DNA of 64,000 bases. Origin: Meiothermus sp. (GTDB lineage: Bacteria > Deinococcota > Deinococci > Deinococcales > Thermaceae). Positions 5,005 through 58,512 of this stretch are shown here, piece by piece; the stretch's first letter is position 1; each line of letters opens with the position of its first letter. Location: NCBI GenBank assembly GCA_033762915.1, contig JANRLD010000025.1, forward strand, positions 1-64,000. The letters are read 5' to 3'. The translations under genes and the position numbers were made by a program. The notes beneath the pieces were generated by a model. That model was not told where the DNA came from. It searched no databases and saw only the letters and a program-made list of their open reading frames with translations.

Positions 5005-6055
5005 ACAACCCTTTGAGCACCTGGTCAGCATCGGTTTCGACCTCGAGATCCCTCAGGCCCCCGGCCCCCGCGCCCTGCTCTACGACCGGGCGGTAGAGGG
5101 CTACGCGGGCGCGCTGGGCGACAAGCTGTCCATCAGCGCGAGGCTGGGCCTGAGCGGCGGCGAGGGCTGCAAGACCATCACCACCTACGCCGACGTGATG
5201 AGCTGGATGGCCAGGCGCTCGCTGCCCCGCGACACCACCCTTTATGTGGTGGGGGGCGGTACCCTGACCGATCTGGGCGGCTTTGTGGCCGCCAGCTACC
5301 TGCGCGGCATCAAGTACGTCAGCATTCCTACCACCACCCTGGCGGTGGTCGATGCATCGGTCGGGGGCAAAACCGGCATCAACCTGACCGAGGGCAAGAA
5401 CCTGGTGGGCGCTTTTCACACCCCCGAGGGCGTCTTTGCCGACCTCACCACCCTCAAGACCCTCCCCGGCCACACCTTCCGCGACGGGCTGGTGGAAGCC
5501 TTCAAGCACGGCGTGATCTCCGGCGACGAGTTGCTAATGAACGTGGAGGGCCTGACCCTCGAGGGGCCGGGCTTCGACAACTACCTGGCGCGGGCGGTCT
5601 CGGTGAAGATTCGCATCGTGGAGGCCGACCCCAGAGAGAAGGGCGAGCGGCGCAAGTTGAATCTGGGTCACACCCTGGGGCACGCCCTCGAGCAGGCCTC
5701 GCAGCACACCCTGCCGCACGGCGCGGCGGTAGCCTACGGGATGCTCTACGCGGCCCTGCTGGGTAAGGTGCTGGGCGGCAACGACCTGGTGCCTGCAGTG
5801 CAGAAGCTGATCCAGTGGCTCGAGCCCGCGGCCCCTCCCAAGCTGGAGTGGAGCGAGCTGACCCCCTACCTGATGCGCGACAAGAAAAAGATCGGCACCG
5901 CGCTCAACTGGGTGGTGCCGATGGACATGGGCTGGCTCGAGGTGCACCCGGTCTCCGAGGACGTCCTCTGGAACTGCTACGACGAGTTCCTCTTCCTCAC
6001 CAAAGACCCGACCCTATGGCCGCAGAAGGCGACACCTAACCAGCAGATGTCGTGA
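4985..6055 (+). CDS. aroB: 3-dehydroquinate synthase
   Basis: GGGTLTDLGGFVAASYLRGI, PTTTLAVVDASVGGKTGIN, LNLGHTLGHALE, HGAAVAYG and DKK motifs. Confidence 0.96.
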   Translation: MRTLKIKQPFEHLVSIGFDLEIPQAPGPRALLYDRAVEGYAGALGDKLSISARLGLSGGEGCKTITTYADVMSWMARRSLPRDTTLYVVGGGTLTDLGGFVAASYLRGIKYVSIPTTTLAVVDASVGGKTGINLTEGKNLVGAFHTPEGVFADLTTLKTLPGHTFRDGLVEAFKHGVISGDELLMNVEGLTLEGPGFDNYLARAVSVKIRIVEADPREKGERRKLNLGHTLGHALEQASQHTLPHGAAVAYGMLYAALLGKVLGGNDLVPAVQKLIQWLEPAAPPKLEWSELTPYLMRDKKKIGTALNWVVPMDMGWLEVHPVSEDVLWNCYDEFLFLTKDPTLWPQKATPNQQMS

Positions 6056-6096
6056 AGGCGGACGATGGTCGGAACAGACCCGGGGGTGGGGCAGGT

Positions 6097-35499: not shown

Positions 35500-36774
35500 A
35501 TGCCGCTAAGGAACGCCTACCGTCCGCCGGGTGAGTCGGGCATGTGGGAGAGCTTTTTGCGCCGGCTCGAGGCCAGCCTCAGGCTGGCCAAGATTCACCC
35601 GGCCACGGTTCAGTACCTGATCCACCCCAAACGCATCGTGGGTCTGTCGATCCCCATCTTGATGGACGACGGGCGGGTGCAGCACTTCCCCGGCTTCCGG
35701 GTGATCCATAACATCGGTCGCGGCCCCGCGCTGGGTGGAGTGCGCTACCACCCCGACGTGACGCTGGGCCAGACCTGCGGGATGGCAGCCTGGATGACGC
35801 TCAAGGCGGCGGTCTACGGGCTCCCCTTCGGGGGCTCGGCGGGCGGGGTGGAGGTTGACCCGGCCAAGCTCTCTCGGCGCGAACTCGAGCGGCTCTCGCG
35901 GCGCTACATCACCGAACTGATCGAGCTGATAGGCCCCGACGAAGACATTCTGGCCCCCGACGTGGGCACCACCGAGCAGGTCATGGCCTGGTTTCAGGAC
36001 ACCTTCACCATGTCCAAGGGCGAGACCTCGCTGAGCGCGGTGACCGGCAAGCCCGACCCTGTGGGCGGCCTGGCCGGGCCGGACGAGGGCGGCGGGCAGG
36101 GCGCGATTTACGTGCTGGCCGACCTGGCCAAGCGCAATGGGTGGAGTCTCGAGGGCGCCTCGGTCGCCATCCAGGGTTTCGGGATGGTGGGCAGCGCCGC
36201 CGCCCGCTACGCCTCGAAAGAGGGGCTGAAGGTGGTGGCGGTGTCGACCAGCCGCAGCGGCGTGTACAACCCCAGCGGCCTGGACATCCCCGCCCTCGAG
36301 GCCCATTACGCCCAACACAAGCACCTCGAGGGATTCGAAGGGGCCAGGCCCATTGGCAACTCCGAACTCCTGACCCTGGACGTGGACTACCTGATCCCGG
36401 CGGCAGTCGAAGCCGTGGTTACTGTGGCCAACGCCGACGCCATTAAGGCCAGGGTGATCGTGGAGGGGGCCAACGGGGCAGTCATGCCCGAGGCCGAGGA
36501 GCGCCTCAAGCTGCGCGGCGTCGAGGTGATCCCCGACGTGCTGGCCAACGGCGGCGGGCTGGTCCTGAGCTACCTCGAGTGGGTGCAAGACCTCTCGATG
36601 CTCTTTTTCGACGAGCACGAGGTGCAAAACCGCCTGCGCGGCTTCATCCACCAGACCCTCGAGGCCGTCATCGAGCGCTCCAAGACCCTGGAGAACGACC
36701 TGCGGGCCGGGGCCTATGTGCTGGCGCTCGAGCGCATCAACGAGGCCAGCCGACTGCGGGGCGTGTACCCCTGA
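35500..36774 (+). CDS. gdhA: Glutamate dehydrogenase regulatory (catalytically degenerate) subunit, Thermus GdhA-type
   Basis: GDH fold with GPALGG in place of GPAKGG and GGSAGG in place of GGGKGG. N-terminus MPLRNAYRPP and C-terminus RLRGVYP are as in Thermus GdhA. Confidence 0.88.
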   Translation: MPLRNAYRPPGESGMWESFLRRLEASLRLAKIHPATVQYLIHPKRIVGLSIPILMDDGRVQHFPGFRVIHNIGRGPALGGVRYHPDVTLGQTCGMAAWMTLKAAVYGLPFGGSAGGVEVDPAKLSRRELERLSRRYITELIELIGPDEDILAPDVGTTEQVMAWFQDTFTMSKGETSLSAVTGKPDPVGGLAGPDEGGGQGAIYVLADLAKRNGWSLEGASVAIQGFGMVGSAAARYASKEGLKVVAVSTSRSGVYNPSGLDIPALEAHYAQHKHLEGFEGARPIGNSELLTLDVDYLIPAAVEAVVTVANADAIKARVIVEGANGAVMPEAEERLKLRGVEVIPDVLANGGGLVLSYLEWVQDLSMLFFDEHEVQNRLRGFIHQTLEAVIERSKTLENDLRAGAYVLALERINEASRLRGVYP

Positions 36775-36942: not shown

Positions 36943-38220
36943 ATGAAATCCGAACCCCTTTCCTACCTCAGCACCGAGAACATCGGCCCCTGGGAGATTT
37001 ACCTGGCCCAAGTGGACCGGGTGACGCCCTACCTGGGCAAGCTGGCCTTCTGGGTCGAAGACCTCAAGCGGCCCAAGCGCATCCTGGTGGTGGATGTGCC
37101 CATCGCCCTGGACGACGGATCGGTGGCCCACTTCGAGGGCTACCGGGTGCACCACAACACCTTTCGCGGCCCGGCCAAGGGCGGCATCCGCTACCACCAG
37201 GACGTGACCATGTCCGAGGTGATGGCGCTGTCGGCCTGGATGACCATCAAGAACGCCGCCGTGGGGCTCCCGTACGGCGGGGGCAAGGGCGGTATCCGGG
37301 TGAACCCGTCCAAGCTCAGCCCCGGCGAAGTAGAGCGCCTCACGCGGCGCTACACCTCCGAGATCGGGCTGATCATCGGCCCAGACAAGGACATCCCCGC
37401 GCCGGATATGGGCACCGGGCCAAGGGAAATGGCCTGGATGATGGACACCTACTCCATGAACGTGGGGCGCACCGCCTCGGGCGTGGTGACCGGAAAGCCG
37501 ATTGCGGTGGGGGGCTCGCTGGGCCGCCAGGACGCCACCGGGCGGGGGGTCTTTGTGACCGCCGTGGCGGCCGCCGAAAAGATCGGGCTGCCGGTAGCCG
37601 GTAGCCGGGTGGTGGTGCAGGGGTTCGGCAATGTGGGCAACGCCTCGGCCCGCATTTTCCACGACGCCGGGGCCAGGGTGGTGGCCGTATCCGACGTGAG
37701 CGGAGCCATCCGCAACGACGGCGGGATAGACCCCTACAAGCTGGTTGATTATGTCCGGCAGATGGGCGGGGTGAAAGGCTACCCCGAGGCCGAGGCCATC
37801 CCAGCTAGTGAGTTGCTCATGGTGCCGTGCGAGTTCCTGGTTCCGGCGGCCCTCGAGAAGCAAATCACCGAGAAAAACGCCTGGAAAATCGAGGCCAGGA
37901 TCATTGCCGAGGGGGCCAACGGCCCTACCACCCCCGCCGCAGACGACATCTTCGCCGAGCGCGGCATCGTGGTGATCCCCGACGTGCTGGCCAACGCGGG
38001 CGGCGTCACGGTGAGCTACTTCGAGTGGGTGCAGGACTTTAATTCCTTCTTCTGGACCGAGCAAGAGATCAACGCCCGCCTCGAGCGGCTGATGCGCCAG
38101 AGCTTCGAGGCCATCTGGCAGGTGGCCCAGGACAAGAAGGTCTCGCTGCGAACCGCCGCCTACATCGTGGCAGCCACCCGGGTGCTGGAGGCGCGGGCCC
38201 TGCGAGGCCTTTACCCCTGA
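36943..38220 (+). CDS. gdhB: Glutamate dehydrogenase catalytic subunit, Thermus GdhB-type
   Basis: [10 protein letters not shown]-terminus. Intact [31 protein letters not shown] and SYFEW. Confidence 0.93.
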
Positions 38221-38317: not shown

Positions 38318-39001
38318 ATGGAACGATTGCTGGTAGTCGAAGACGACCCCCAACTGGCCCGCCTTATGACCTCGGTCCTCGAGCGGGAGGGTTACCGTGT
38401 TCAGTTGGCCACCAACGGGCTGGACGCCGTAGCGATGGGCCCACAGTCCGACCTGATGCTGCTGGACCTTGGCCTCCCGGGGCTTTCGGGCCTCGAGGTC
38501 ATCCGCGACATGCGCTCAGGCGGCTGGAATATGCCCATCCTGGTGGTCAGCGCCCAGGGCTCGGAGGACATGCGGGTGCGGGCCCTGGAACTGGGGGCCG
38601 ACGACTACTTGACCAAGCCGATGGGGATGCGCGAGATGGTGGCCCGGGTGCGGGCCCTAATCCGCCGTACCCGCCCGGCCCCCGAGATTCAGGTGGGCGA
38701 CCTCAAGATTCTGCTCAACCGCCGCCAGGTGTACAAGGGCCAGCAACTGCTGGACTTCTCGGCCACCGAGCTCGACCTGCTGATCACCCTTGCGGCAAAC
38801 CCCGGCGAGGTCTGGAGCCGCGAACGGCTCTTGAGCCGGGTCTGGGGCTCGGAGCGGGGAAGCGCGGTGGACGAGCGGGTGGTGGACAGCTACGTGGCCC
38901 TGTTGCGGCGCAAGCTGGGCGACGACCCCAAGGCCCCCCGTTACGTGGAGACAGTCTTTGGGCAGGGCTACCGAATGGTCATCAGCCTGGGCGAGCTGTG
39001 A
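38318..39001 (+). CDS. OmpR/PhoB family response regulator (no adjacent kinase)
   Basis: VVEDD, LLDLGLPG, GADDYLTKP, and wHTH 'LRRKLGDD...ETVFGQGY'. Confidence 0.95.
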   Translation: MERLLVVEDDPQLARLMTSVLEREGYRVQLATNGLDAVAMGPQSDLMLLDLGLPGLSGLEVIRDMRSGGWNMPILVVSAQGSEDMRVRALELGADDYLTKPMGMREMVARVRALIRRTRPAPEIQVGDLKILLNRRQVYKGQQLLDFSATELDLLITLAANPGEVWSRERLLSRVWGSERGSAVDERVVDSYVALLRRKLGDDPKAPRYVETVFGQGYRMVISLGEL

Positions 39002-39205: not shown

Positions 39206-39266
39206 CCTCAATCGTAGAGGCGTGAGTTTCGGCATGCTGTGCCGCTACGCCCGAGGAGGAGTGGGA

Positions 39267-39779
39267 ATGAAGTGGAGACAGCTTTGGATCATTGGTCTCA
39301 GCCTGGTGCTGGCCCTGGCATTTGCGCAGACCAGGGGGGCAGTGAAGCTCGACCTTCAGGCCTACCGGGTGCTGAGCGTGCAGGAAAACGGCAGGTCCGT
39401 TGAGAAGCTGGAGGAGGCCCTCGAGGTACGCCCCGGCCAACTCATCGAGTACCGCCTGGCCGCCCAGAACACCAGCCAGACCGCCCTGCGCCAGGTCAGC
39501 CTGGTCATCCCGATTCCCCGCACCACCGCCTACCAGGCCCTGAGTGCGGCTCCCCTGCGGCTTGGCCAGAGCCTGGTCGCGCCTCAGTTTAGTTTTGACG
39601 GTGGAAGCGTCTACGGCTTCCCGCCGCTAAAGCGCAAAGTAACTGTGATGGAAAACGGCAAGGAGGTTCAGCGCGAGGTTGAGGTGAAGCCCGAAGAGTA
39701 CACCCATGTTCGCTGGGTTCTGCCGCAGATGGCCACCCAGGAAAACGTCGTCTTGACGCTGCGGGCCACGGTTCGCTAA
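39267..39779 (+). CDS. Small secreted single truncated-DUF11 protein (putative chaperone/cap)
   Basis: GAGGAGG RBS, signal peptide ending AFA-Q, 'RPGQLIEYRLAAQN...VIPIP...HVRW...LTLRATVR*'. Confidence 0.8.
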   Translation: MKWRQLWIIGLSLVLALAFAQTRGAVKLDLQAYRVLSVQENGRSVEKLEEALEVRPGQLIEYRLAAQNTSQTALRQVSLVIPIPRTTAYQALSAAPLRLGQSLVAPQFSFDGGSVYGFPPLKRKVTVMENGKEVQREVEVKPEEYTHVRWVLPQMATQENVVLTLRATVR

Positions 39780-39830: not shown

Positions 39831-42602
39831 ATGAAAAGAACCCTAAGTCTGTTGGTCGGCGCGGTGGCGCTTCTGGGCGTAGCCTTCGCCCAGCAAACCC
39901 CCGCCGGAACCAACATCTCCAACCAGGCCTCGGCCACCTATATCGACTCGGCCGGTCAGAACCAGAGCACCACTTCCAACCAAGTGTTGACCGTGGTGCA
40001 GCAGGTTTACAGCTTCACCATCACCCCCAACTCGGCCAGCACCAGCGAGCCCACCGGCGCCGCCGGCTTCGCCCAGAGCCGCAGCGCCCTTCCCGGTGCG
40101 CGCGTCTACTTCCCCTACACGGTCAACAATACAGGCAACGGCCCTGATACCATCAACCTGACCAGTGTACTCGGTACCGCCGGCGGCACCACCCCCGTTC
40201 GCTTCGTGCTCCAGACCCCCACCATCTACCGCGACACCAACTGTAACGGCTCGGTGGACGCCGGTGAGTCGGTGATCTCCTCGGTGGCCCTCACCCAAAA
40301 CGTCGGGGCACTGGCCGCAACCTCCTTGGCCTGCGTGATCATCGAGACCACCATCCCCAGCAGCGCCAATAACAACGAGGTCGGCAACATCAACCTCTCG
40401 GGGATCTCGGCCGGCAACAACTCGGTGACCGACACCAACAACTGGTCGCGGGCCATCGCCACCACCTCCGCCGCGCTGGACATCAACAAGAGCGCCAGCC
40501 CCAGCAACACGGCTTCGGCGGGCGGCACCATCTCCTACACCATCACCGGCCAGAATCGCGGCGGCAGCGCGGCCTCCGGCCTGACCACCATCCCCACCGG
40601 CCTGGGCAGCATCCCGGTTGCCAGCAGCACCGGCATCCTGATCTGGGACATCGTGCCCACTGGCCTGACCCTGACCGGCGCCCCCAGCGGCTCCTCGGGC
40701 GCGGGCACCGTCAACATCGTCTACTCGAGCGACGGCACCACCTGGACCTCGACCGCCCCGACCTTCGCCACCTGGGCCGGCGACGGCACCCGCCGCGTGG
40801 GCATGTGGATCACCGGCTCGGGCGCTTTCTTCCCCCAGGGGGCCTCGTACACCTTTAGCTTCACCACCAACGTGCCCGCAGGCGCGGCCTCGGGTACCAC
40901 GTACACCAACACTGCCAACCTGCAGTTCAACAACGGCGCCGACGTCGGTCCGGTCGCCTCGAACAGCACCTCCAACACCGTCGGCACCACCTTCGGCGTG
41001 GCCCTTGGCCCCAACGGTACCGCCACCGCTGCGGGCAACGGCGCGGTCGGCTCGGCCGACTCCCAGACCATCGCCTCGGCTTTCAGTGGCCAGACGGTGA
41101 CCTTCACCCAGACCCTGCAGAACACCGGCAATGCCTCTGACAGCTTCAACCTGTCCCTGGGCACCGGCGCGACCGCCCCCAACCTGGCCCCGCCCAGCGG
41201 CTGGTCCTGCCAGATCACCCAGATTGACGGCACCCCCATCAACACCGCCGTCGGGCCTTTTGCTGCCAACGCCACCTTCAACTTCCAGGTGCGCTGCGCC
41301 ATCCCCGCCAGCTACACCACCGCCACCGCGGTTAGCTTGAACGTGATCGCCACTTCGGTCGGCAACTCTGGCACCAGCGACCCCACCGCCGACACGGTCA
41401 GCGCGGTCAGCCTGGGCTACGCAGTCGACCTCGCCACCCGCGGCAACACCTCCAGGCCCGAGACCGCGGCCAACGACAACCCCGCCGGCCAGACCACCAA
41501 CCCCGCAACCACCGTCAGCTTCCCGCTGGACGTGCGCAACAACGGCGAGAACACTGACACCTACCAGCTCTCGGCCACCATCCCCTCTGGCTGGTCGGTG
41601 CAGTTCATCAACGATGCCAACAACAACGGCGTAGCCGACTCCGGCGAGGCCGTGGTCAACAACACCGGCCTGATGGCCAAGGACGCTGTCCGTAGCGTGA
41701 TCGCGGTGGTCACGGTGCCGGCCGGCACCAGCCCCGGCAGCAACAGCCTGACCTTTACCACCACCAGCGCCACCCTGGGCACGGTGAGCAACGCCGTCTC
41801 TACCACCATCACCGTCAACGAGGTCCGGGCCTTCGTATTCGACCCCGACCGCAGCGGTACCGTGACCAGCCCCGGCACCATCGTCTACACCCATAACCTG
41901 CGCAACAACGGCAACGCCAGCGCAACCGTGGCGATCCCCGCGCCCACCTTCCTCAACACCTCCCGCGGCTGGACCTACCAGTACTCCACCGACGGCGGCA
42001 CCACCTGGACCAGCACCGTCTCGGGCTTGGTCCTGGCCGCCAACGCCTCGGCCACCCTGCAGGTGCGGGTGATCGTGCCCGCCGGCGAGGCCATCGGGGT
42101 GAGCGAGACCGCCCAGATCACCGCCACCGCCACCTACGCCAGCAGTGCCACCGCAGCCCAGACCGTCAACGACACCACCACCATCGTGGCCGGCGACCTG
42201 ACCCTGGCCAAGACCGGCATCAGCTACGTGGGCAGCTCCGCCACCGTGCGCTCCGCCACCGCCGCCACCGCACTGCCCGGCGACCAGATCCTCTACACGG
42301 TGGTCGCGACCAACAACGGCGTGGGCAATCTGACCACCGTCAAGATCGCCGACCCGCTGCCCAGCTTCACCGACTTCGTCTCGGTTAGCGCCACTACCAC
42401 CATCTCGGGCGGTACCGTGGTCTACTCCACCGACGGCAACAACTGGACCACCACTGCCCCGACTACCCTCTCGGCAGGTCAGTCCATCTACGTAGCCGTC
42501 AACACCGCCGGCACCGCTGGCGGCGCGGGCAGCATCGACGCCAGCGACCTGATGGCTCCTGGCCGCACCATCACCATCACCTTCCGAGTGCAAGTCCGCT
42601 AA
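39831..42602 (+). CDS. Secreted multi-Ig/DUF11 protein, putative major filament (shaft) subunit
   Basis: GGAGG RBS, 20-aa signal peptide, T/A/S/G/N-rich beta repeats, N-terminal 'TPAGTNISNQASATY' and C-terminal truncated DUF11 ending 'TITFRVQVR*'. Confidence 0.85.
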   Translation: MKRTLSLLVGAVALLGVAFAQQTPAGTNISNQASATYIDSAGQNQSTTSNQVLTVVQQVYSFTITPNSASTSEPTGAAGFAQSRSALPGARVYFPYTVNNTGNGPDTINLTSVLGTAGGTTPVRFVLQTPTIYRDTNCNGSVDAGESVISSVALTQNVGALAATSLACVIIETTIPSSANNNEVGNINLSGISAGNNSVTDTNNWSRAIATTSAALDINKSASPSNTASAGGTISYTITGQNRGGSAASGLTTIPTGLGSIPVASSTGILIWDIVPTGLTLTGAPSGSSGAGTVNIVYSSDGTTWTSTAPTFATWAGDGTRRVGMWITGSGAFFPQGASYTFSFTTNVPAGAASGTTYTNTANLQFNNGADVGPVASNSTSNTVGTTFGVALGPNGTATAAGNGAVGSADSQTIASAFSGQTVTFTQTLQNTGNASDSFNLSLGTGATAPNLAPPSGWSCQITQIDGTPINTAVGPFAANATFNFQVRCAIPASYTTATAVSLNVIATSVGNSGTSDPTADTVSAVSLGYAVDLATRGNTSRPETAANDNPAGQTTNPATTVSFPLDVRNNGENTDTYQLSATIPSGWSVQFINDANNNGVADSGEAVVNNTGLMAKDAVRSVIAVVTVPAGTSPGSNSLTFTTTSATLGTVSNAVSTTITVNEVRAFVFDPDRSGTVTSPGTIVYTHNLRNNGNASATVAIPAPTFLNTSRGWTYQYSTDGGTTWTSTVSGLVLAANASATLQVRVIVPAGEAIGVSETAQITATATYASSATAAQTVNDTTTIVAGDLTLAKTGISYVGSSATVRSATAATALPGDQILYTVVATNNGVGNLTTVKIADPLPSFTDFVSVSATTTISGGTVVYSTDGNNWTTTAPTTLSAGQSIYVAVNTAGTAGGAGSIDASDLMAPGRTITITFRVQVR

Positions 42603-42611
42603 GCCCCATTT

Positions 42612-42639
42612 GTCCCCCTGGGCCTGTGCCCAGGGGGAC
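42612..42639 (+). terminator. Strong hairpin after the putative major subunit (attenuator or mRNA stabiliser)
   Basis: Perfect 12-bp stem GTCCCCCTGGGC-ctgt-GCCCAGGGGGAC. No U-tract on the + strand. Confidence 0.6.
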
Positions 42640-42773
42640 CCAAAAGTTCAACTGAGTTAGCTTGACTTCAGGATTCAACAGTTCAGCCACCCCTCGAGCC
42701 GAACTCAGTTAGTGGGACCCCCACCTAACCGCGTCGGCTCGAGTTTTTTTACCCTGAGAAGGAGGTGAGCGTT

Positions 42774-45509
42774 TTGACACCCGACAACCCCAATGCGCCC
42801 ACTTCCCTCGGGGCCCGCGCACAACATCGGACTTTCCTTTTCCCGCTGGCCCTTTTGCTGAGCTTCCTGGCCTGTTTTTGGCCCTCGGCCCTAGCCCAGA
42901 GCGCCCTGGCCGGCACCATCATCTCCAACCAGGCCCAAGTCTCCTTCGCCGAGTCTACCCAGCCCTACTTCTCCAACGTGGTGGAGACCCTGGTTCAGGC
43001 GGTCTGCGCGCCGACCATCACCCCCAACGGAACCCAGGGCAGCCCGGCCCAGCGGGCGGTGGTTTCGGCGGGCGGTTTCGCCTACTTCCCCTACCTGCTG
43101 CGCAATGCCGGCAACCAGCGCAGCACTTTCGCGCTGAGCTCGGCCCAGAACGCCGCCACCTGGGCCCCCCGTTGGGTCCGGTTGTACCTAGATCAAAACG
43201 AAGACTCGAGGCTCGACCCGGGGGAGCCCCAGGTCGCGAGCCTGTCCCTTGATGTGGGGGAGCAGCGCCGGCTGGTGATGGAGGTTGCCCTACCCGCCAA
43301 CGCCACCGGCGACCTGCTGGTCACCCCCACTGCCAGCTGCGTGACCGGCGAGCGCGACGACGACAACTTCAGCCAGATCAGCGTGGGAACCGGGCCCTCG
43401 CTCAACCTCACCAAGTCCACCAGCCGGACCACCCTCGACACCAACCAGGAAACCACCTTCGGGCTCCTGGTGGCCAACCTGGGCAGCACGCGGACGGGCG
43501 GGCCGGTCTCCGTCACCGACTGGCTCAACACCCCCGAACTGGCCGGGCTAAGCATTGTGCCCGGCTCGGCCGAGGCCACCAAGGGACGCCTGGAGTACAG
43601 CGCCGACGGGACCACCTGGAGTAGCCTCGAAGGCACCCAGGTCCTCGGGGTGCGCCTGGTGCTCGATGGCCTGGAGGCCGGCGAGCAGGCAGTCTTCAGC
43701 TTCCGCATGCGCCTGGGCGAGGGTAGCTCGAACGGCCTCCGGCGTAACCTGGCCACCGCCGAGGGTCCGGGCGGGCCAGCGGTGGCCGCCGTCGAGCTGA
43801 CGGTGGCCCCACGCTTCGCCCACCGGTTGGGGCCGCTGGGCCGGCCCGAGGCCAGCGGTGCCCAGGACCGCCAGAGCGGAACCGCCCGTGTCGGGCAGAG
43901 CTACTGCTTCTCACACAGCCTGATTAACCTGGGCAACGCCCCCGACCGCTACACCCTCGAGCTCGGCGTGCTGCCCCCAGGGATAACCGCCAGCTTCCGC
44001 CAGGGCAGCGGCCCGCTGGCCCAACCGATCCTGCTGGGCCAGGGCGAACGCAGTGACTTCCAACTCTGCCTAGGCGGCCTCGATCAGCAGACTCCCAGCT
44101 TCGAGGTCACCCTCAACGCGGTCTCCCAGACCACCGGGGCGGTCGACCCCACCTACGACATACTGGGTGTCACCTACGACCCGGCCAGCGTGCGGCTGCT
44201 CAAGAGCACCGACCGGGCCTCGGCGATGCCGGGAGAGTCGGTCAACTACACCCTGCAAATCAGCAACCCCTTCCCGGTCGCGATGACCAACCTGCGTGTC
44301 AGGGACCAGCTCGACGAGAGGCTGGAGTTCGTCGAAGCCTCTTCAGGCGGCAGCTTCGAACCGGCCAGCCGCGAGGTGGTCTGGACGGTGGGCAGCCTGG
44401 GGGTCGGCCAGACCCTCACCCTGAGCCTGCGGGTGCGGGTGGCCTCCACCACGAACGACGGCCAGATCCCCAACCGCTTCAGTCTCCGGGCCGATCAGTT
44501 CGACGACACCGCCACCTCCAACACGGTCAGTCTGCCTATCCTCACCAGCAGCATCCAGCTGCTCAAGAGGGTAACCCCTGCTCAGGCAGTGGTGGGCGAC
44601 ACCCTCACCTTCACGCTGACCCTACAGAACACCGGCAAGACCGACCTGGTCATCGAGGTGGTTGACACCCCCGGCAAAGGCCTGCGCTACGTGGAGCAGA
44701 GCGCCCAGCCCGCCGCCTCAGCCCAGCGCGGAGAGGGCCTGGTGTGGTCGGGCCTCGAGCTACCCGCCGGGGCCACCCGCAGCCTGAGCTACAAGATGCG
44801 GGTGTTGGCAGGGGCCCCGGAGCTGCTGGAGAACCGCGCGGTGGCCACTGGGGTCAACACCCAGGGGGTGGCGGTGGCGGCGGCCTCGGCGGCGGCCTCG
44901 GTCAAGCTGGACCGGGCGGTGTTCACGCCCATCAACATTCTGAGCGGCAGGGTCTTCCTCGATTCCGACCGCGATGGGCGCTATACGGCTGGTCTGGACA
45001 TCCCGCTACCAGGAGCCAGGCTGGTGCTGTCCAACGGGATGCAAACCCTCAGCGACAAGGACGGGCGCTACGCCTTTCGGGAGCTGCGGGGCGGGGCCTG
45101 GGAGATCTTCCTCGACCCGGCCTCAGCCCCCTTCAAGCCGCTCCCGCACCCCGAGCAGTTAGGTGAAGGCTACCGCCACAGGGTCACGGTCAACGGCCTG
45201 ACCAACTCCGACTTCCCCCTCGAGCGCCCCCTGGGCCAGGCGGTGGTGCAGCGCGAGACCACCCTCGAGTTCGGCCCGCTTAAGGTCTACAAGCGCCTGA
45301 TCGCCCTGCCGGCCGGGTTGCGGGTGGTCTTGGAGGTCAACAGCAGCGAGCCCATGAACGACCTCACCGTCTCCGACCCGGTGCCCGGCGGTGGGCTTCG
45401 GGAGTTCAAATTTGACAAGCTGGAAGGCCCACAGACCGTAACCTACGACTTGCCCATAACGCCCGGGTTCTACCTAACCGACCCGCAGGCCAGGTGGCGA
45501 TACCCATGA
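42774..45509 (+). CDS. Secreted DUF11/SdrD-B-like protein, putative base/adaptor subunit
   Basis: Signal peptide, 'ALAGTIISNQAQVSF', three complete DUF11 domains, and an SdrD-B-like 'GRVFLDSDRDG...PLPGARL...DKDGRYAF'. The GTG at 42765 lies inside a perfect SD (AAGGAGGTGA), so TTG 42774 is the likelier start. Confidence 0.85.
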   Translation: MTPDNPNAPTSLGARAQHRTFLFPLALLLSFLACFWPSALAQSALAGTIISNQAQVSFAESTQPYFSNVVETLVQAVCAPTITPNGTQGSPAQRAVVSAGGFAYFPYLLRNAGNQRSTFALSSAQNAATWAPRWVRLYLDQNEDSRLDPGEPQVASLSLDVGEQRRLVMEVALPANATGDLLVTPTASCVTGERDDDNFSQISVGTGPSLNLTKSTSRTTLDTNQETTFGLLVANLGSTRTGGPVSVTDWLNTPELAGLSIVPGSAEATKGRLEYSADGTTWSSLEGTQVLGVRLVLDGLEAGEQAVFSFRMRLGEGSSNGLRRNLATAEGPGGPAVAAVELTVAPRFAHRLGPLGRPEASGAQDRQSGTARVGQSYCFSHSLINLGNAPDRYTLELGVLPPGITASFRQGSGPLAQPILLGQGERSDFQLCLGGLDQQTPSFEVTLNAVSQTTGAVDPTYDILGVTYDPASVRLLKSTDRASAMPGESVNYTLQISNPFPVAMTNLRVRDQLDERLEFVEASSGGSFEPASREVVWTVGSLGVGQTLTLSLRVRVASTTNDGQIPNRFSLRADQFDDTATSNTVSLPILTSSIQLLKRVTPAQAVVGDTLTFTLTLQNTGKTDLVIEVVDTPGKGLRYVEQSAQPAASAQRGEGLVWSGLELPAGATRSLSYKMRVLAGAPELLENRAVATGVNTQGVAVAAASAAASVKLDRAVFTPINILSGRVFLDSDRDGRYTAGLDIPLPGARLVLSNGMQTLSDKDGRYAFRELRGGAWEIFLDPASAPFKPLPHPEQLGEGYRHRVTVNGLTNSDFPLERPLGQAVVQRETTLEFGPLKVYKRLIALPAGLRVVLEVNSSEPMNDLTVSDPVPGGGLREFKFDKLEGPQTVTYDLPITPGFYLTDPQARWRYP

Positions 45510-51457: not shown

Positions 51458-54328
51458 ATGTACACACCCCTCACAAGGCAGGACTCAGGCCGGGCCCGCG
51501 CTCCCCTGGGCCTTCTCGTCATGGCGCTGCCCGCCCCCCTGACCAGAGTCTTCGCCCTCGCGTTGCTCCTCTGCAGCTTCGCTCAGGCCCAGCTCAGCTT
51601 CACCAACAGCACCACCGCCCAGACCCTAGCCAATGCCCTGGCCGGGCCTGGCGTCACAGTAGTGGCCAACTCCGCCACCCTCACCCGCGCCACCACCAAC
51701 CAGAACAACACGGGCACCTTCAGCGGGGGCACCACCGGAGGCGCCGGCCCGGTGGTCGGGATCGGCTCAGGGGTGCTCCTCAACACCGGCAGCTTCGCCA
51801 CCTCAGTGGCGGGGCCCAACAACCGCAAAGGCTCTTCGGCGGGCGGCAGCCAGCTCACCGACGCTGACCTGACCAGCTTGGCCGGGGCCACGGCCAACTA
51901 CGACACCGTGTTGCTGACCTTCAGCGTAGTACCCAGCGGGCGCAGCCTCAACTTCCAGTACGTCTTCGGCAGCGAAGAGTACCCCGAGTATGTCTGCACC
52001 TCGTTCAACGACGCGATGGGGATCTTCGTGCGGGGCCCGGGCATCTCCGGGCCCTACGCCAACGGCGCGGTCAATGTGGCCACCCTGCCCAGCGGGGACC
52101 GGATTAGCATCAACAACATCAACGGCGGGCAGATCGGCTACCAGGGCGGGGCCACCGGGACCGGCTGTGTCCTGGGCAACAACGCCTACTACGTCGACAA
52201 CGGCGATCCCAACAACGCCACCCTGCCCAACTCGGCCCTGTTCACCAATACCCAGCTCGACGGCTTCACCCGGCCCCTGCGCAGCCGGGTCAGCGTGACC
52301 CCCGGCCAGACCTACGTCGTGAAGATCGCCATTGCCGACACCGGCGACGCGCAGTACGACTCCGCGCTGTTCATCGGGCTGATCTCGAGCCAGTCCGACT
52401 GGGGCGATGCCCCCTCCACCTACGGCACCAGCACCGCCACCAATGGCCCCCTGCACGACATCGACAGCCGGATCTTCATCGGCCCGACCCAGCCCGACGT
52501 GGAGAACGACGGCCAACCCGGGGCGGGGGCCGACGGTGACAACCTCAACGGGACCAACGACGAGAACACCCTCACCACCTTCCCAACCCTTACCTCGAGC
52601 ACCCCCACCTACACCCTTAGCGCAATACCGTTGACCAACACCACTGGCCTACCCGCGACCCTGGCAGGATGGATCGACTTCAACCGCAACGGCCTGTTCG
52701 ACGCCTCGGAGCGGGCCACCGTATCGGTGGCCAGCGGCGCCACCAGCGCCACTCTGACCTGGAGCGGGCTGAGCGGGCTTTCGATCGGGACCACCTACCT
52801 GCGCCTGCGCCTCTCCTCGGCGCTCGACTTCGTGGCCAACCCCCTCCCGACCGGCGGCTACGACGACGGCGAGGTGGAGGACTATGCACTGAGTATCGTG
52901 TTCGGGGCGGTGGTCTCGGGCACCGTCTACAGCGACCTACAGCCCAACGGAACCCGCGACAGCGGCGAGAGCTGGAGTGGGGGCCCGACCGTCTTCGTCA
53001 ACCTGATCCAGGCCGGGACGGTGGTGCAGTCGGCCCAGGTGGCCAGCGGCGGCGGGGCCTACAGCTTCAGCGCGGTGCTACCCGGCAGCTATAGCCTGGT
53101 GCTGGGCGGCTCCATCGGCGCCACCACGCCCGCCTCGCCCGCTGGCTGGATGGCCATCAACCCCAGCCCTGCCCTCCTCAGCGTTACGGTCACCGCAAGC
53201 AACATGCCCAACCAGAACTTCGGCCTGTTTAACGGCTATCGCCTCGCGGGCCTGGTTTTCCGAGACGACGGGCGGGGCGGCGGGACCGCCAACAACGCCC
53301 TGCAAGACGGCGGCGAGCCGGGCTTGGGGGGCGTCACCTTGACCGCCACCGCAGGCCCCAGCACCCGCTCGGCCGCGACCGACGCCACCGGGGCCTACGA
53401 CCTCTACATCCCCGCCAGCTTCTCCAGCGTAACCCTGGGCCACGCTCAGACCCCGGCCACCGGCCACAACAACGCCGGATCGGCCGTCACGCTGGCCTCG
53501 AGCTTCTCCGACCCCGCCGCGAGGCAGCGCAGCCTGGGCACCCTGGCCAACGGCTCGAGCTACTCCTACAACTTCGGGGTGGTATGGGCCTCGGAGCTCC
53601 GCCCCGACCAGAGCGGCCAGGCCACCAGCCCCGGCATCGCCACCTACCGCCACACCTTCCGCCCCGGCACCCTTGGCAGTCTCTCGCTCGCCGCCACCGG
53701 CGCACTGACCTACCGCATCCGCCGTGCCGCCGGCTGCACCGCCCTGGCCCCCTCCGACACCCTGCAGCCGCTGCCCCTCTCTGTGGTCGTCGACGCCGCC
53801 TGGCCCCGCGACCCCAATGGCCGTCTCAGCGCCTGCGAACTCGAGCTGCTGGTCCTGGTGCCCGCCGGACGGCCCAGCGGCGCGGTGGACATCGCCCAAC
53901 TTACCAGCAGCCTGACCTGGGCCGGCAACGCGAGCGTGACGGAACAGCGCAACGTCATCGACACCACCACCGTCGTGGCCCAGGGCGCTCTCCGCCTTGA
54001 AAAGGCCGTCCGCAACGTCACCCAGAACGTCCCCGCCGCCGGCGCCTATACCACCAACGTTGCCGGGCGCCCCGGCGACACCCTCGAGTACTGCATCGCC
54101 TTTCGCAACCCCGGCGCCGCCGCCGTCAGCAGCGCCGTCCTCACCGACCCCATCCCCTTCTTCACCAACTACACCGCTTCCTCCCTCCGCCTCGGCGCCA
54201 CCGCCCTCTCCGACGCCGCCGACGCCGACGCCGGCGAGCTGGTGAGCGGCCTCTACGTCCTGGTTCGCCTCGGCAACCTTACGGCAGGCCAGACCGGACA
54301 GGTCTGCTACCGCGTGACAGTGCGCTGA
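51458..54328 (+). CDS. Putative tip adhesin 1: choice-of-anchor-L-like + GEVED + SdrD-B-like + C-terminal truncated DUF11
   Basis: 'FQYVFGSEEYPEYVCTSFND', 'KIAIADTGDAQYDSALFI', 'DWGDAP', 'WIDFNRNG..GEVEDY'; ends 'QVCYRVTVR*'. The start may instead be ATG 51521. Confidence 0.82.
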   Translation: MYTPLTRQDSGRARAPLGLLVMALPAPLTRVFALALLLCSFAQAQLSFTNSTTAQTLANALAGPGVTVVANSATLTRATTNQNNTGTFSGGTTGGAGPVVGIGSGVLLNTGSFATSVAGPNNRKGSSAGGSQLTDADLTSLAGATANYDTVLLTFSVVPSGRSLNFQYVFGSEEYPEYVCTSFNDAMGIFVRGPGISGPYANGAVNVATLPSGDRISINNINGGQIGYQGGATGTGCVLGNNAYYVDNGDPNNATLPNSALFTNTQLDGFTRPLRSRVSVTPGQTYVVKIAIADTGDAQYDSALFIGLISSQSDWGDAPSTYGTSTATNGPLHDIDSRIFIGPTQPDVENDGQPGAGADGDNLNGTNDENTLTTFPTLTSSTPTYTLSAIPLTNTTGLPATLAGWIDFNRNGLFDASERATVSVASGATSATLTWSGLSGLSIGTTYLRLRLSSALDFVANPLPTGGYDDGEVEDYALSIVFGAVVSGTVYSDLQPNGTRDSGESWSGGPTVFVNLIQAGTVVQSAQVASGGGAYSFSAVLPGSYSLVLGGSIGATTPASPAGWMAINPSPALLSVTVTASNMPNQNFGLFNGYRLAGLVFRDDGRGGGTANNALQDGGEPGLGGVTLTATAGPSTRSAATDATGAYDLYIPASFSSVTLGHAQTPATGHNNAGSAVTLASSFSDPAARQRSLGTLANGSSYSYNFGVVWASELRPDQSGQATSPGIATYRHTFRPGTLGSLSLAATGALTYRIRRAAGCTALAPSDTLQPLPLSVVVDAAWPRDPNGRLSACELELLVLVPAGRPSGAVDIAQLTSSLTWAGNASVTEQRNVIDTTTVVAQGALRLEKAVRNVTQNVPAAGAYTTNVAGRPGDTLEYCIAFRNPGAAAVSSAVLTDPIPFFTNYTASSLRLGATALSDAADADAGELVSGLYVLVRLGNLTAGQTGQVCYRVTVR

Positions 54329-57500: not shown

Positions 57501-58512
57501 ACCCGGCATCGGCGGGGTGACCGTCTCGGCGGTGGGGGCCACCACCCGCACCGCCAGCACCGACGCCAGCGGCGGTTTTAGCCTGCTGATCCCCAGCGGC
57601 TTTGGCAATTTCACCCTCTCCCAGCCCCAGGGTCCTGCCACCGGCTCTAACGTCGGCGGCACCGCGGTTCAGCTGGCCGCCGGCTACAACAGCGCGGTGG
57701 CCCGTCAGCGAGCCGTAACCGCCCTACCCAACGGCTCGAGCAACTCGGGCTACAACTTCGGGGTGGTATGGGCCTCGGAGCTCCGCCCCGACCAGAGCGG
57801 CCAGGCCACCAGCCCCGGTGTCGCCGCCTATCGCCACACCTTCCGCCCCGGCACGCTCGGCAGTGCAAGCCTGACCGTCAGCGGCGCCTTCACTTACCAG
57901 ATCCGCCGCGCCGCTGGATGCACCGCCCTGGCACCCTCCGACGCCCTGCGGCCCGTGCCCCTCTCCCTGGTCGTCGACTCCACCTGGCCCCGCGACCCCG
58001 ACGGCCGCCTCAGCGCCTGCGAGCTCGAGCTGCTGGTCCTGGTCCCCGCCGGCCGGCCCGGCGGCTCCGTCGACATCGCCCAGCTTTCGGCGTCCCTAAC
58101 CTGGGCCGGCAACGCAAGCGTGACCGACCAGCGCACCGCGACCGACACCACCACCGTCGCCGCGACGGGCGCTCTGCGCTTGAGCAAGGTGGTGCGCAAC
58201 GTCACCCAGAACATTCCCGCTGCTGGCGCATATGCCACCAACGTCGCTGGCCGCCCCGGCGACACCCTCGAGTACTGCATCGCCTTCCGCAACTCCGGCG
58301 CCGCTGCCGTCAGCAGCGCCGTCCTCACTGACCCCATCCCCTTCTTCACCAACTACGCCCCGGGCACCCTCCGCCTCGACTCCGCACCGCTCACCGATAC
58401 CGCCGACGCCGACACCGGCGAGCTGGTGGGCACCCTCTACGTTCTGGTTCGCCTCGGCACCCTGACCGCAGGCCAGACCGGACAGGTCTGCTACCGCGTC
58501 ACCATCCGCTGA
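54550..58512 (+). CDS. Putative tip adhesin 2: lectin/jelly-roll-like head + SdrD-B + DUF11 stalk + C-terminal truncated DUF11
   Basis: GGAGGAG RBS, signal peptide, 'MFINAA...FYEQT...GGGGNDLAIDNLQF' head, three complete DUF11 domains; ends 'QVCYRVTIR*'. Confidence 0.82.
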   Translation: MMPKTAGGWPGLAVGLVLIALTGLSGPASAQATNFCANAGGTRSANLFALDGTFGTAPAGTQAPTLTSSTNPTPTVTPLRYAMSTVPGVTGGLDAQGRPIGTTTYALNNRSTVNFPGNYSPEDGEYEITNSSYSRQDGAWHRFIGGRNTGNERDLFMFINAAVAAGVFYEQTLTVTPNTNFEFSISIINLIANNSSIVPNVNLEIDRLGVDDNNNGTVDESGEAQTIVLTGNIPNSNTPIWRDYGGVINSGASNRITVRFRNNAPGGGGNDLAIDNLQFTSCTGLSTGNISGRVYLDQNANNTSDAGEPGYGPNVAVSLIGKDQNLNDFIVATAQTAADGSYSFVNVPAGTYTVAVPQNEPQLNQANPRNPSTTAVINSVTYVTRPSTVVGLGTSLTNQNFGFGPAPISLQKTANANSSTDAIGSVITAAAVGNTFQYTLRVTNNTGTNLSSTSLRLMDALPAGLTYVTGSLQMALVTTGSPTFSSVNDGGSYPFTEPSGRLLGRNVGTSTSSFNNGNLNSGETLIVRFRVTVASGPPPQISNQGRITYTISSVSRNVLSDDPNVAGFADPAVVVVGANLTVSKVADLASVSPGSTLRYTITLVNNGALPTTALTLQDPLPAGLTYVPNSAEAAIGSTPASFTPLNASSYPFATARTMGNNVSSGGFNNNTLAVGETLTVRFRVTVADTATGLGQATSLSNQASTVFNYTGGSPTTVPSDDPAFGGPSDPTITPVQYPDLTIQKTAAATFWQGNNSSYTLTVSNTAGSPASLGTVSVTDVLDASLNYVSAGGSGWSCAYTAATRTVACTRSDALSGGSAYPGITLTVVPTAAGPVPNTAGVANGADNNSANNTSTLSLSVQATYTLSGNVFADANANGLREGGEAGLAGVTVALGGAAARTALTDSSGNYAFTFLIPGSYTLTQTDLPGYISITPNLLGVSLGNADLGNQNFADFLGYRLSGTVFRDDGRGGGTANNALQDGGEPGIGGVTVSAVGATTRTASTDASGGFSLLIPSGFGNFTLSQPQGPATGSNVGGTAVQLAAGYNSAVARQRAVTALPNGSSNSGYNFGVVWASELRPDQSGQATSPGVAAYRHTFRPGTLGSASLTVSGAFTYQIRRAAGCTALAPSDALRPVPLSLVVDSTWPRDPDGRLSACELELLVLVPAGRPGGSVDIAQLSASLTWAGNASVTDQRTATDTTTVAATGALRLSKVVRNVTQNIPAAGAYATNVAGRPGDTLEYCIAFRNSGAAAVSSAVLTDPIPFFTNYAPGTLRLDSAPLTDTADADTGELVGTLYVLVRLGTLTAGQTGQVCYRVTIR

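Follow-up and report, generated by a model that had tools for sequence, protein, structure and literature searches.

The gene considered here encodes a secreted protein of 923 residues, designated the shaft subunit (P0001), and is located in a 64,000-nucleotide stretch of DNA from Meiothermus sp. (contig JANRLD010000025.1, positions 1 to 64,000; this whole stretch is referred to as the window). By sequence comparison, the two ends of the protein fall at a single point of a DUF11 domain: the first 48 residues of the mature chain correspond to the strands and linker that are missing from its last domain. The best explanation, which we consider probable, is that the N-terminal module of one protein inserts in trans into the C-terminal domain of another, that the joint is locked by a covalent Lys-Asn bond, and that the resulting chains include shaft-shaft joints. 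DUF11 domains, also termed CLIPPER domains, are CnaA-like and contain a Lys-Asn isopeptide bond formed with catalysis by an Asp; in the solved domain (PDB entry 9IFR) the three residues are K715, D748, and N806, according to the accessible portion of the CLIPPER survey (PMC12617251). The original prediction, made from the sequence of the window, had invoked a CnaA-type Lys-Asn bond with a catalytic Asp, which agrees with that portion of the survey, and strand donation between proteins carrying a split triad, which is supported by the split-domain homology, docking, conservation, and acceptor-only and donor-only paralogs described below.

Residues of the Split and Internal Triads

The positions originally assigned to the split triad, Lys794, Asp841, and Asn31, and to the triad of a complete internal domain are correct, each motif being located exactly in the translation of the 923-residue open reading frame (ORF). 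Lys794 (codon 42210, AAG) lies in the sequence LTLAKTG (residues 790–796), Asp841 (codon 42351, GAC) in KIADPLP (residues 838–844), and Asn31 (codon 39921, AAC) in ISNQA (residues 29–33). The internal domain holds all three residues in cis: Lys220 in LDINKSA (residues 216–222), Asp273 in IWDIVP (residues 271–276), and Asn360 in TYTNTAN (residues 357–363). It is the only one of the two domains in which a Lys, an Asp, and an Asn of this kind occur within one domain of one chain, the C-terminal domain having no such Asn. The protein is rich in Thr, Ala, Ser, Gly, and Asn, begins with a signal peptide, and contains just five lysines (residues 2, 220, 617, 794, and 838), of which only Lys220 and Lys794 are conserved; domain 1 has no Lys. 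Because Lys794 is the sole conserved Lys that is unmatched to an Asn in its own domain, it is the candidate partner of Asn31.

In the AlphaFold2 (AF2) model of the full-length shaft subunit, the protein is all-β and comprises about seven segments, with a predicted local distance difference test (pLDDT) score of 86.4, a predicted template modeling (pTM) score of 0.43, and low-confidence linkers at residues 401–408 and 786–788. A 916-residue antisense frame (positions 39843–42593, minus strand) spans the shaft gene and was treated as an artefact, mirror frames being common at 67% GC; among 40 distant ortholog loci, in high-GC DNA, a spurious frame is the longest ORF in 13.

Homology of the Two Termini to One Domain

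Profile comparisons were made with hhalign, using a family alignment of 38 sequences (A1) cut by column. Residues 790–922 align to internal residues 216–348 (E 4.2e-13, probability 97.9%), which places Lys794 on Lys220 and Asp841 on Asp273, and the alignment halts at ...FTTNV348/...FRVQV922, just ahead of the strand that carries Asn360. The mature N terminus, residues 21–68, aligns best to residues 350–396 (E 2.9e-5, probability 73.6%), with Asn31 on Asn360. Both termini thus align to successive halves of the internal domain, and it is on this basis that the chain is considered to start and stop at one point of the DUF11 domain. The complete domain reaches about 37 residues beyond the endpoint of the C-terminal domain of the shaft.

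Family profiles describe the C-terminal domain in the same way. Pfam DUF11 (PF01345) matches residues 808–891 at 32.9 bits (cut-off 24.6) over profile positions 7–81 of 114, and NCBIfam TIGR04226, the isopeptide-forming fimbrial D2 family, matches residues 809–922 over positions 12–104 of 123 with 26.9 bits (cut-off 30); both matches end short of the end of the profile. NCBIfam TIGR01451 also matches this domain (50.8 versus a cut-off of 24). The internal domain has no Pfam match and is tied to DUF11/CLIPPER through the hhalign comparison and its predicted fold.

Fold of the Internal Domain

A fold search with the 923-residue model (Foldseek) returned only generic Ig-like chains from ciliary proteins, titin, and macroglobulins; as this was uninformative, the internal domain was folded alone, from a 30-row alignment drawn from DNA references, and the model (pLDDT 87.1, pTM 0.83) was compared with 48,161 solved chains. 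Isopeptide domains from Gram-positive pilins rank highest together with the CLIPPER structure, and Foldseek concurs. They include BcpA (3kpt_A; Z 13.7, root mean square deviation (rmsd) 2.4, 133 residues aligned), SpaD (4hss_B; Z 11.8, rmsd 3.3, 132 aligned), CLIPPER (9ifr_A; Z 11.7, rmsd 2.2, 123 of 123 aligned, with model residues 6–180 corresponding to residues 211–385 of the protein), and RrgB (2x9z_A; Z 10.8, rmsd 2.7, 131 aligned). The Foldseek match to 9ifr has an E value of 8.2e-5 and a template modeling (TM) score of 0.70 normalized to the target. The CnaA-like fold is a result for the internal-domain model, to which the acceptor domain is linked by profile homology. When the Protein Data Bank (PDB) was searched by sequence with the family profile, the only matches were two antibody light chains (E 0.065 and 0.36). 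The best fold matches of the internal domain also include TTHA1873, a hypothetical protein of 160 residues from Thermus thermophilus whose structure has been solved in monomeric and dimeric form (PDB 7WRK/7WWO; Z 10.9, rmsd 2.5, 129 aligned).

Predicted Docking of the N-terminal Module into the C-terminal Domain

The complex of residues 786–923 with residues 21–70, both supplied as rows of alignment A1, was predicted in three runs alongside three controls. The interaction score ipSAE is 0.90 in each of the three runs, as compared with 0.02 for the best of the three controls; the mark applied to this score is attained by 116 of 157 solved complexes versus 2 of 215 mismatched pairs. Contacts agree between runs to at least 93%, and the pLDDT of the partners is at least 82. 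In the predicted complex, residues 29–40 run antiparallel to residues 834–842 (841 with 33, 840 with 34, and 838 with 36), and residues 47–57 lie against residues 788–796 (794 with 49 and 52), so that Lys794, Asp841, and Asn31 are all within the predicted interface. The strand pairing in these models is that expected if the module replaces the homologous strands of an intact domain.

Conservation of the Two Triads

A word-indexed search gave 194 matches to the shaft family, nearly all from Meiothermus, Calidithermus, and Thermus, and 120 of these close homologs were aligned. Asn31, Lys220, Asp273, Asn360, and Lys794 are each retained in all 120 and Asp841 in 118, and the positions neighboring the triad residues vary; the C-terminal end column is identical in 119 of the 120. 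The family has a wider distribution, since a profile search of 301 Deinococcota genomes gave matches at E ≤ 1e-40 in 129 genomes, in five families, and full-length matches are also present outside the family represented in the window.

More divergent sequences separate the two triads. In a set of 40 Deinococcota orthologs of 25–45% identity, for each of which the ORF was chosen by hidden Markov model (HMM) score, the split triad is Asn/Lys/Asp in 37 (of 39 that can be scored) and Ala/Leu/Asp in 2, the remaining protein being N-terminally truncated. Asn and Lys are both replaced in the two exceptions, which probably reflect one event because they come from the same genus. All 40 proteins have the same C-terminal end column. 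The cis triad Lys220/Asp273/Asn360 is intact in just 19 of the 40; it is often degenerate in distant loci, for example L051, L055, L056, L063–L078, and L082. Among representatives of a set clustered at 50% identity, P0267 has Ala at the position of Asn31 together with Leu at that of Lys794, P0225 has lost Lys794 and Asp841, and P0250 has lost only the cis triad. As far as these alignments go, the split triad is more strongly constrained than the cis triad and shows joint loss of its Asn and Lys, as would be expected for partners, with few independent losses behind the pattern.

A search with the acceptor domain through 1.84 billion representatives gave 1286 matches at E ≤ 0.001, mostly to giant multi-DUF11 proteins; among the 150 listed, about 16 are shaft-like, with the domain at the very C terminus. 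A protein of 536 residues in a Deinococcus metagenome-assembled genome (L042, 9971–12945) has a donor module (E 2e-4) and a terminal acceptor (E 4e-24) and resembles a pared-down shaft; it is preceded by a protein of 490 residues with a DUF11-like C-terminal part.

Acceptor-only and Donor-only Proteins of the Operon

The genes from position 39222 past the end of the window are all on the plus strand and are closely spaced (Table 1). Three of them encode tip-like proteins that vary in their N-terminal parts (GEVED, SdrD_B, and DUF11 domains), lack a donor module, and end in an acceptor domain with an LxLxK motif, TDPIP, and a YRVTxR terminus in the end column of the shaft. The acceptor Lys and Asp and the shared endpoint are found in 8 of 8 donor-less tip-type proteins, three from this operon and five from other loci. 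Two Cys residues are conserved in the tip acceptor domains (LEYC... and ...VCYRV; positions 53990–54325 and 58174–58509 of the window and approximately 5700–6069 of locus L007), and the shaft acceptor has Thr at both sites; the pair may be disulfide-bonded, which would set the tip acceptors apart as a type of their own.

The protein designated o914 has the opposite composition. It has a donor module (donor HMM E 3e-7) and no C-terminal acceptor domain, and the Asn of the donor module is kept in 35 of 35 shaft proteins and 29 of 29 o914 orthologs. Because acceptor-only and donor-only proteins need another protein to be completed, complementation in trans is indicated at least at the tip and o914 joints, and, because the tips have only acceptors, the shaft both ends, and o914 only a donor, the chain would have a polarity. 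The C terminus of o914, RWRYP (positions 45492–45506), belongs to a TDPxxRW motif that is present in 25 of 25 aligned orthologs (RWRYP in 24, and an RWGYGR end in one). The start of the next gene, at 45494, overlaps the end of the o914 gene, at 45509, and translational coupling, perhaps with a docking motif, is therefore suggested. The 1972-residue product of that gene matches PF13609 Porin_4 at residues 1491–1642 (31.4 bits versus a cut-off of 27). We propose that o914 is the chain terminator and anchor and that the 1972-residue protein is an outer-membrane platform or anchor.

The small protein o185, encoded upstream of the shaft, resembles the acceptor domain (hhalign probability 95.3%, E 2.2e-8, 27 sequences aligned) and has VIPIP (positions 39504–39518) in place of xDPxP, and so no Asp, as well as no conserved Lys in strand A. 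A sequence search of the PDB gave no match to o185 at E ≤ 1. Reversible binding of donor strands, as a putative chaperone or cap, would be a possible role. A stretch PEEYTHxRW is conserved in o185.

The gene arrangement, running from o185 through the shaft, o914, and the barrel protein to a tip-like protein, is conserved in Thermaceae. Of 35 public loci, many of which are broken at contig ends, 29 have o185 upstream of the shaft, 29 have o914 (≥300 bits), and 28 have the barrel protein. Between the shaft and o914 genes, the region at 42612–42750 folds into two strong hairpins with a minimum free energy of −66.3 kcal/mol (z −7.26; 0 of 200 shuffles equally stable). A simple terminator scan gave nothing on the plus strand 3′ of the shaft gene, and the hairpins were found by direct folding. 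They may act as an attenuator that raises the ratio of shaft to next-gene transcript.

Table 1. Features of the shaft gene and its operon in the window
Feature	Position	Strand	Description
o185	39222..39779	+	Small secreted protein with a single DUF11-like domain; likely start ATG 39267; acceptor-like
Shaft subunit gene (P0001), 923 residues	39831..42602	+	Signal peptide, donor module, about five complete β-sandwich domains, C-terminal incomplete CLIPPER domain
Shaft signal peptide, residues 1–20	39831..39890	+	...GVAFA|QQ, read by eye; AF2 helix 2–18; putative cleavage site
Shaft donor module, residues 21–68	39891..40034	+	Asn31 (codon 39921–39923); homology to the last two strands and linker of a CLIPPER domain
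Shaft internal CLIPPER/CnaA-like domain, residues 211–396	40461..41018	+	Complete; cis triad K220 (40488), D273 (40647), N360 (40908)
Shaft acceptor domain, residues 786–923	42186..42599	+	DUF11/CLIPPER; K794 (42210–42212), D841 (42351–42353); lacks the Asn strand and final strand
RNA hairpins	42612..42750	+	Hairpin pair 3′ of the shaft stop codon, with a T7 run behind the second hairpin; direct folding
o914	42765..45509	+	Donor-only protein; signal peptide, AGTIISNQA (42909–42935; Asn codon 42927–42929), DUF11 domains
Giant protein, 1972 residues	45494..51412	+	C-terminal third a porin-like β-barrel, PF13609 Porin_4
Tip-like protein 1, 956 residues	51458..54328	+	GEVED, SdrD_B; LRLEK (K849, 53990–54004), TDPIP (54143–54157), end YRVTVR
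Tip-like protein 2, 1320 residues	54550..58512	+	DUF11, SdrD_B; LRLSK (K1213, 58174–58188), TDPIP (58327–58341)
Tip-like protein 3, 1997 residues	58978..64000 (runs on to G000:C25:64971)	+	Seven DUF11 domains; LRLEK, TDPIP, end YRVTIR

Proposed Assembly of the Chain

The model for assembly is anchored in the split-domain homology, the conservation and co-loss of the triad residues, the predicted docking, and the logic of the operon. Export by the Sec pathway followed by removal of the signal peptide would leave a shaft subunit with a donor module at its N terminus and an acceptor domain at its C terminus. The donor module of one protein would enter the acceptor domain of another, residues 29–40 lying beside the Asp strand (residues 834–842) and residues 47–57 pairing with the Lys strand (residues 788–796), so that a complete CLIPPER domain is rebuilt. 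Lys794 would then attack the carboxamide of Asn31 with the assistance of Asp841, ammonia would be released, and the joint would be covalently locked. The three acceptor-only tip-like adhesins would occupy the distal end of the chain, and a shaft subunit, having both ends, would extend it, the N-terminal module of the next protein entering the C-terminal domain that is left open nearest the cell. Growth would be basal, by analogy with chaperone-usher pili, and shaft subunits would presumably polymerize with one another into a chain of putative length. Incorporation of the donor-only o914 would end the chain, and its conserved C terminus probably ties the chain to the 1972-residue barrel protein.

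A more far-reaching version of this scheme, which we advance tentatively as a serious possibility, is that the operon specifies a new class of pilus that is distributed across the Deinococcota. Subunits of about 90 kDa would be joined at the giant barrel by autocatalytic bonds in split CLIPPER domains, without sortase, chaperone-usher proteins, or extracellular ATP, beginning with acceptor-only tips and ending with a donor-only anchor. In such a pilus o185, being acceptor-like and without the Lys and Asp, might hold donor strands reversibly and hence act as a chaperone in the sense opposite to PapD; the tip adhesins would be interchangeable, and donor and acceptor would be a ready-made thermostable Tag/Catcher pair.

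Several points weigh against covalent assembly in trans. The profile homology of the N terminus is of moderate probability (73.6%), and a pairwise Smith-Waterman alignment of this low-complexity sequence with the internal domain, which has a register identical to that of the profile alignment, is insignificant (score 35; 98 of 300 shuffles at least as good); the profile comparison was therefore relied on. The complex prediction provides contacts only, without the geometry of Lys794, Asn31, and Asp841, and the most confident contacts of Lys794 are with residues 49 and 52 and not with residue 31, so that the Lys must span the core of the sandwich to reach Asn31, as is assumed for the intact domain. 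Part of the complex score may stem from resemblance to split isopeptide domains of known structure, given that the internal domain matches the RrgA Jo.In complex (5MKC) in fold with Z 9.0; the lack of any PDB relative of the shaft family by sequence counters this concern. The N-terminal module is modeled with pLDDT values of 88–95 in the AF2 monomer and may be docked there in cis. Asp841 is replaced by Ala in one homolog and by Glu in another. The scheme would require folded subunits of about 90 kDa to pass through the outer membrane, and no supporting evidence from expression, proteomics, or microscopy was found; no RNA sequencing runs carrying the locus are listed, and the best DNA runs share 0.29 and 0.22 of words.

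Alternative Explanations

The same joints might hold together a three-part adhesin of fixed stoichiometry, with one tip, one shaft, and one base and no shaft homopolymer. The logic of the operon demands trans joints only between different proteins, and a single shaft of about six domains is already long. We nevertheless regard this arrangement as unlikely, given that the shaft has both a donor and an acceptor, that the two are predicted to dock with each other, and that both ends are kept in every ortholog scored; the hairpins that follow the shaft gene could also yield an excess of shaft transcript.

Closure in cis would have the N-terminal module enter the C-terminal domain of its own chain, the Lys794-Asn31 bond cyclizing a self-locked monomer. 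The joint variation of Asn31 and Lys794 fits this equally with assembly in trans, and the high pLDDT of the N-terminal module in the AF2 monomer is compatible with it. Neither the acceptor-only tips, 8 of 8 of which are without a donor, nor the 29 of 29 donor-only o914 proteins can be completed in this manner, however, and the continuity from the donor module into domain 1 mirrors that from the internal strands into the following domain, which favors an extended tandem array. The pTM of 0.43 gives no confident ring, and we consider cyclization quite improbable.

We give similarly little credence to donor-strand complementation that is solely non-covalent, with the Lys, Asp, and Asn serving in packing or folding. 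Great stability is attained without covalent links in chaperone-usher and type V pili, and the homolog with Ala at position 841 suits this explanation, but the residues concerned are exactly homologous to the bond-forming triad of the solved CLIPPER domain, they are invariant or nearly so among variable neighbors, and Asn and Lys are lost jointly. The idea that the shaft is an ordinary multidomain adhesin, with a degenerate last domain and an unrelated sorting or export signal at its N terminus, is scarcely credible: stalk proteins with DUF11 domains are widespread, the triad is absent from some of these domains (accessible portion of PMC12617251), and the N terminus has no significant pairwise similarity to the Asn strand, but the profile homology has the Asn in register, the complex scores far exceed the controls, the truncation point is shared by 119 of the 120 close homologs and by all 40 distant orthologs, and the tip and base paralogs match the donor-acceptor pattern.

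Comparison with Known Assembly Systems

Covalent assembly in trans, the preferred reading, has the same architectural logic as the chaperone-usher pili. In type 1 and P pili, the tip adhesin has only a groove, the rod subunits have an extension and a groove, a terminator completes the chain, and an outer-membrane barrel is the platform, and the tip, shaft, o914, and barrel proteins of the operon, known here from genes and predictions, can be arranged in the same order. As in those pili, the shaft has an N-terminal extension that, by homology and in the complex prediction, completes an incomplete Ig-like fold of another subunit. It differs in that two strands are donated and not one, the joint is predicted to be covalent, and the subunits are multidomain and about 6 times larger; Pfam scans of 11 proteins in or beside the cluster gave no PapD or usher families.

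Sortase-assembled pili such as those of BcpA, SpaD, and RrgB also contain isopeptide domains of the CnaA/CnaB type and consist of covalently linked subunits. Their intersubunit bond is made by a sortase, between the threonine of LPXTG and the lysine of a pilin motif, whereas that of the shaft would be autocatalytic. The expectation that a fiber of the shaft would be independent of sortase is supported: the sortase family PF04203 has no match in the genome from which the window derives (95.5% complete), the same search being positive in 3 of 14 control genomes, and the shaft has no LPXTG sorting signal, its C terminus being ...ITFRVQVR.

SpyTag/SpyCatcher is an engineered split isopeptide pair, and Jo/In is another, derived from RrgA (PDB 5MKC; available part of PMC5333627). 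Like the shaft termini, engineered pairs consist of one piece with an Asn strand (the bond being Lys-Asn or Lys-Asp) and one with the Lys and catalytic acid, and they religate spontaneously. They were made in the laboratory from intact domains, whereas the shaft pair would be one already split by evolution, from a thermophile, with a two-strand tag of about 48 residues.

The principle of exchange and locking is already known in other folds. In the sections available of a preprint on BsaA of Clostridium perfringens (10.1101/2024.11.04.621531), an N-terminal strand inserts into the next subunit and is locked by a spontaneous Asn-Lys bond; the triad is N35/E56/K74, in which the acidic residue of the acceptor is catalytic, and triad mutants form no oligomers. 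The shaft proposal shares with BsaA, so far as described there, both donor-strand exchange and the lock through an intermolecular isopeptide bond. BsaA has a TasA-like fold, catalysis by Glu, a small single-domain subunit, and a Gram-positive host with SipW, in contrast to the CnaA-like/CLIPPER fold, Asp, six domains in 923 residues, diderm host, and separate tip, base, and barrel proteins of the shaft system. No TasA or peptidase-M73 families are among the Pfam matches of the cluster proteins, and the mechanism is akin to that of TasA/BsaA fibers without the shaft being a member of that group. The thread of Sulfolobus acidocaldarius, Saci_0406, likewise combines head-to-tail strand complementation with an intermolecular isopeptide link in an extremophile; in the text available (PMC9715654), Asn57 is linked to the N-terminal α-amine of Asp24 in subunit n+2. 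It is unlike the shaft in being archaeal, in its non-canonical bond without a Lys-Asp-Asn triad, and in its unrelated fold, on the evidence of the same text.

What would be new here is the naturally split CLIPPER version of a known principle. The shaft resembles CLIPPER 9IFR in fold and in the placement of the triad, with Lys in the first strand, Asp in the DPxP strand, and Asn in the penultimate strand, and is unlike it in that the CLIPPER triad lies in one domain of one chain, where the bond stabilizes a stalk, whereas the bond of the shaft would join two polypeptides. The accessible portion of the CLIPPER survey (PMC12617251) deals with intramolecular bonds only, and the words "split," "SpyTag," and "strand complementation" do not occur in it. 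In the full-text literature, with subscription journals outside coverage, no description was found of a natural split CnaA-like/CLIPPER domain joining proteins, nor, within the same coverage and in the available part of a 2026 review (PMC13721041), of a fiber operon of this kind in Thermus, Meiothermus, or Deinococcus.

Formation of the bond would mean that diderm bacteria possess a covalent route to surface fibers that needs no sortase, and the chain logic of chaperone-usher pili would be united with the isopeptide chemistry of Gram-positive pilins, two principles known until now only separately. A stalk-stabilizing domain would have become a polymerization device by the shift of two strands to the opposite end of the chain, and attachment and biofilm formation by Thermus, Meiothermus, and Deinococcus would have an explanation. 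A split Lys-Asp-Asn pair from a thermophile, in orthogonal-looking versions of shaft, tip, and base type, is also a candidate protein-ligation reagent.

Genomic Surroundings of the Operon

An OmpR/PhoB-type response regulator is encoded at 38318–39001, directly ahead of the fiber operon, and tandem glutamate dehydrogenase paralogs lie farther upstream, at 35500–36774 and 36943–38220. The source assembly is 5.38 Mb in 119 contigs, with a completeness of 95.5% and a contamination of 0.51%; the genomes of the same genus listed in the profile search of Deinococcota are 2.4–3.9 Mb.

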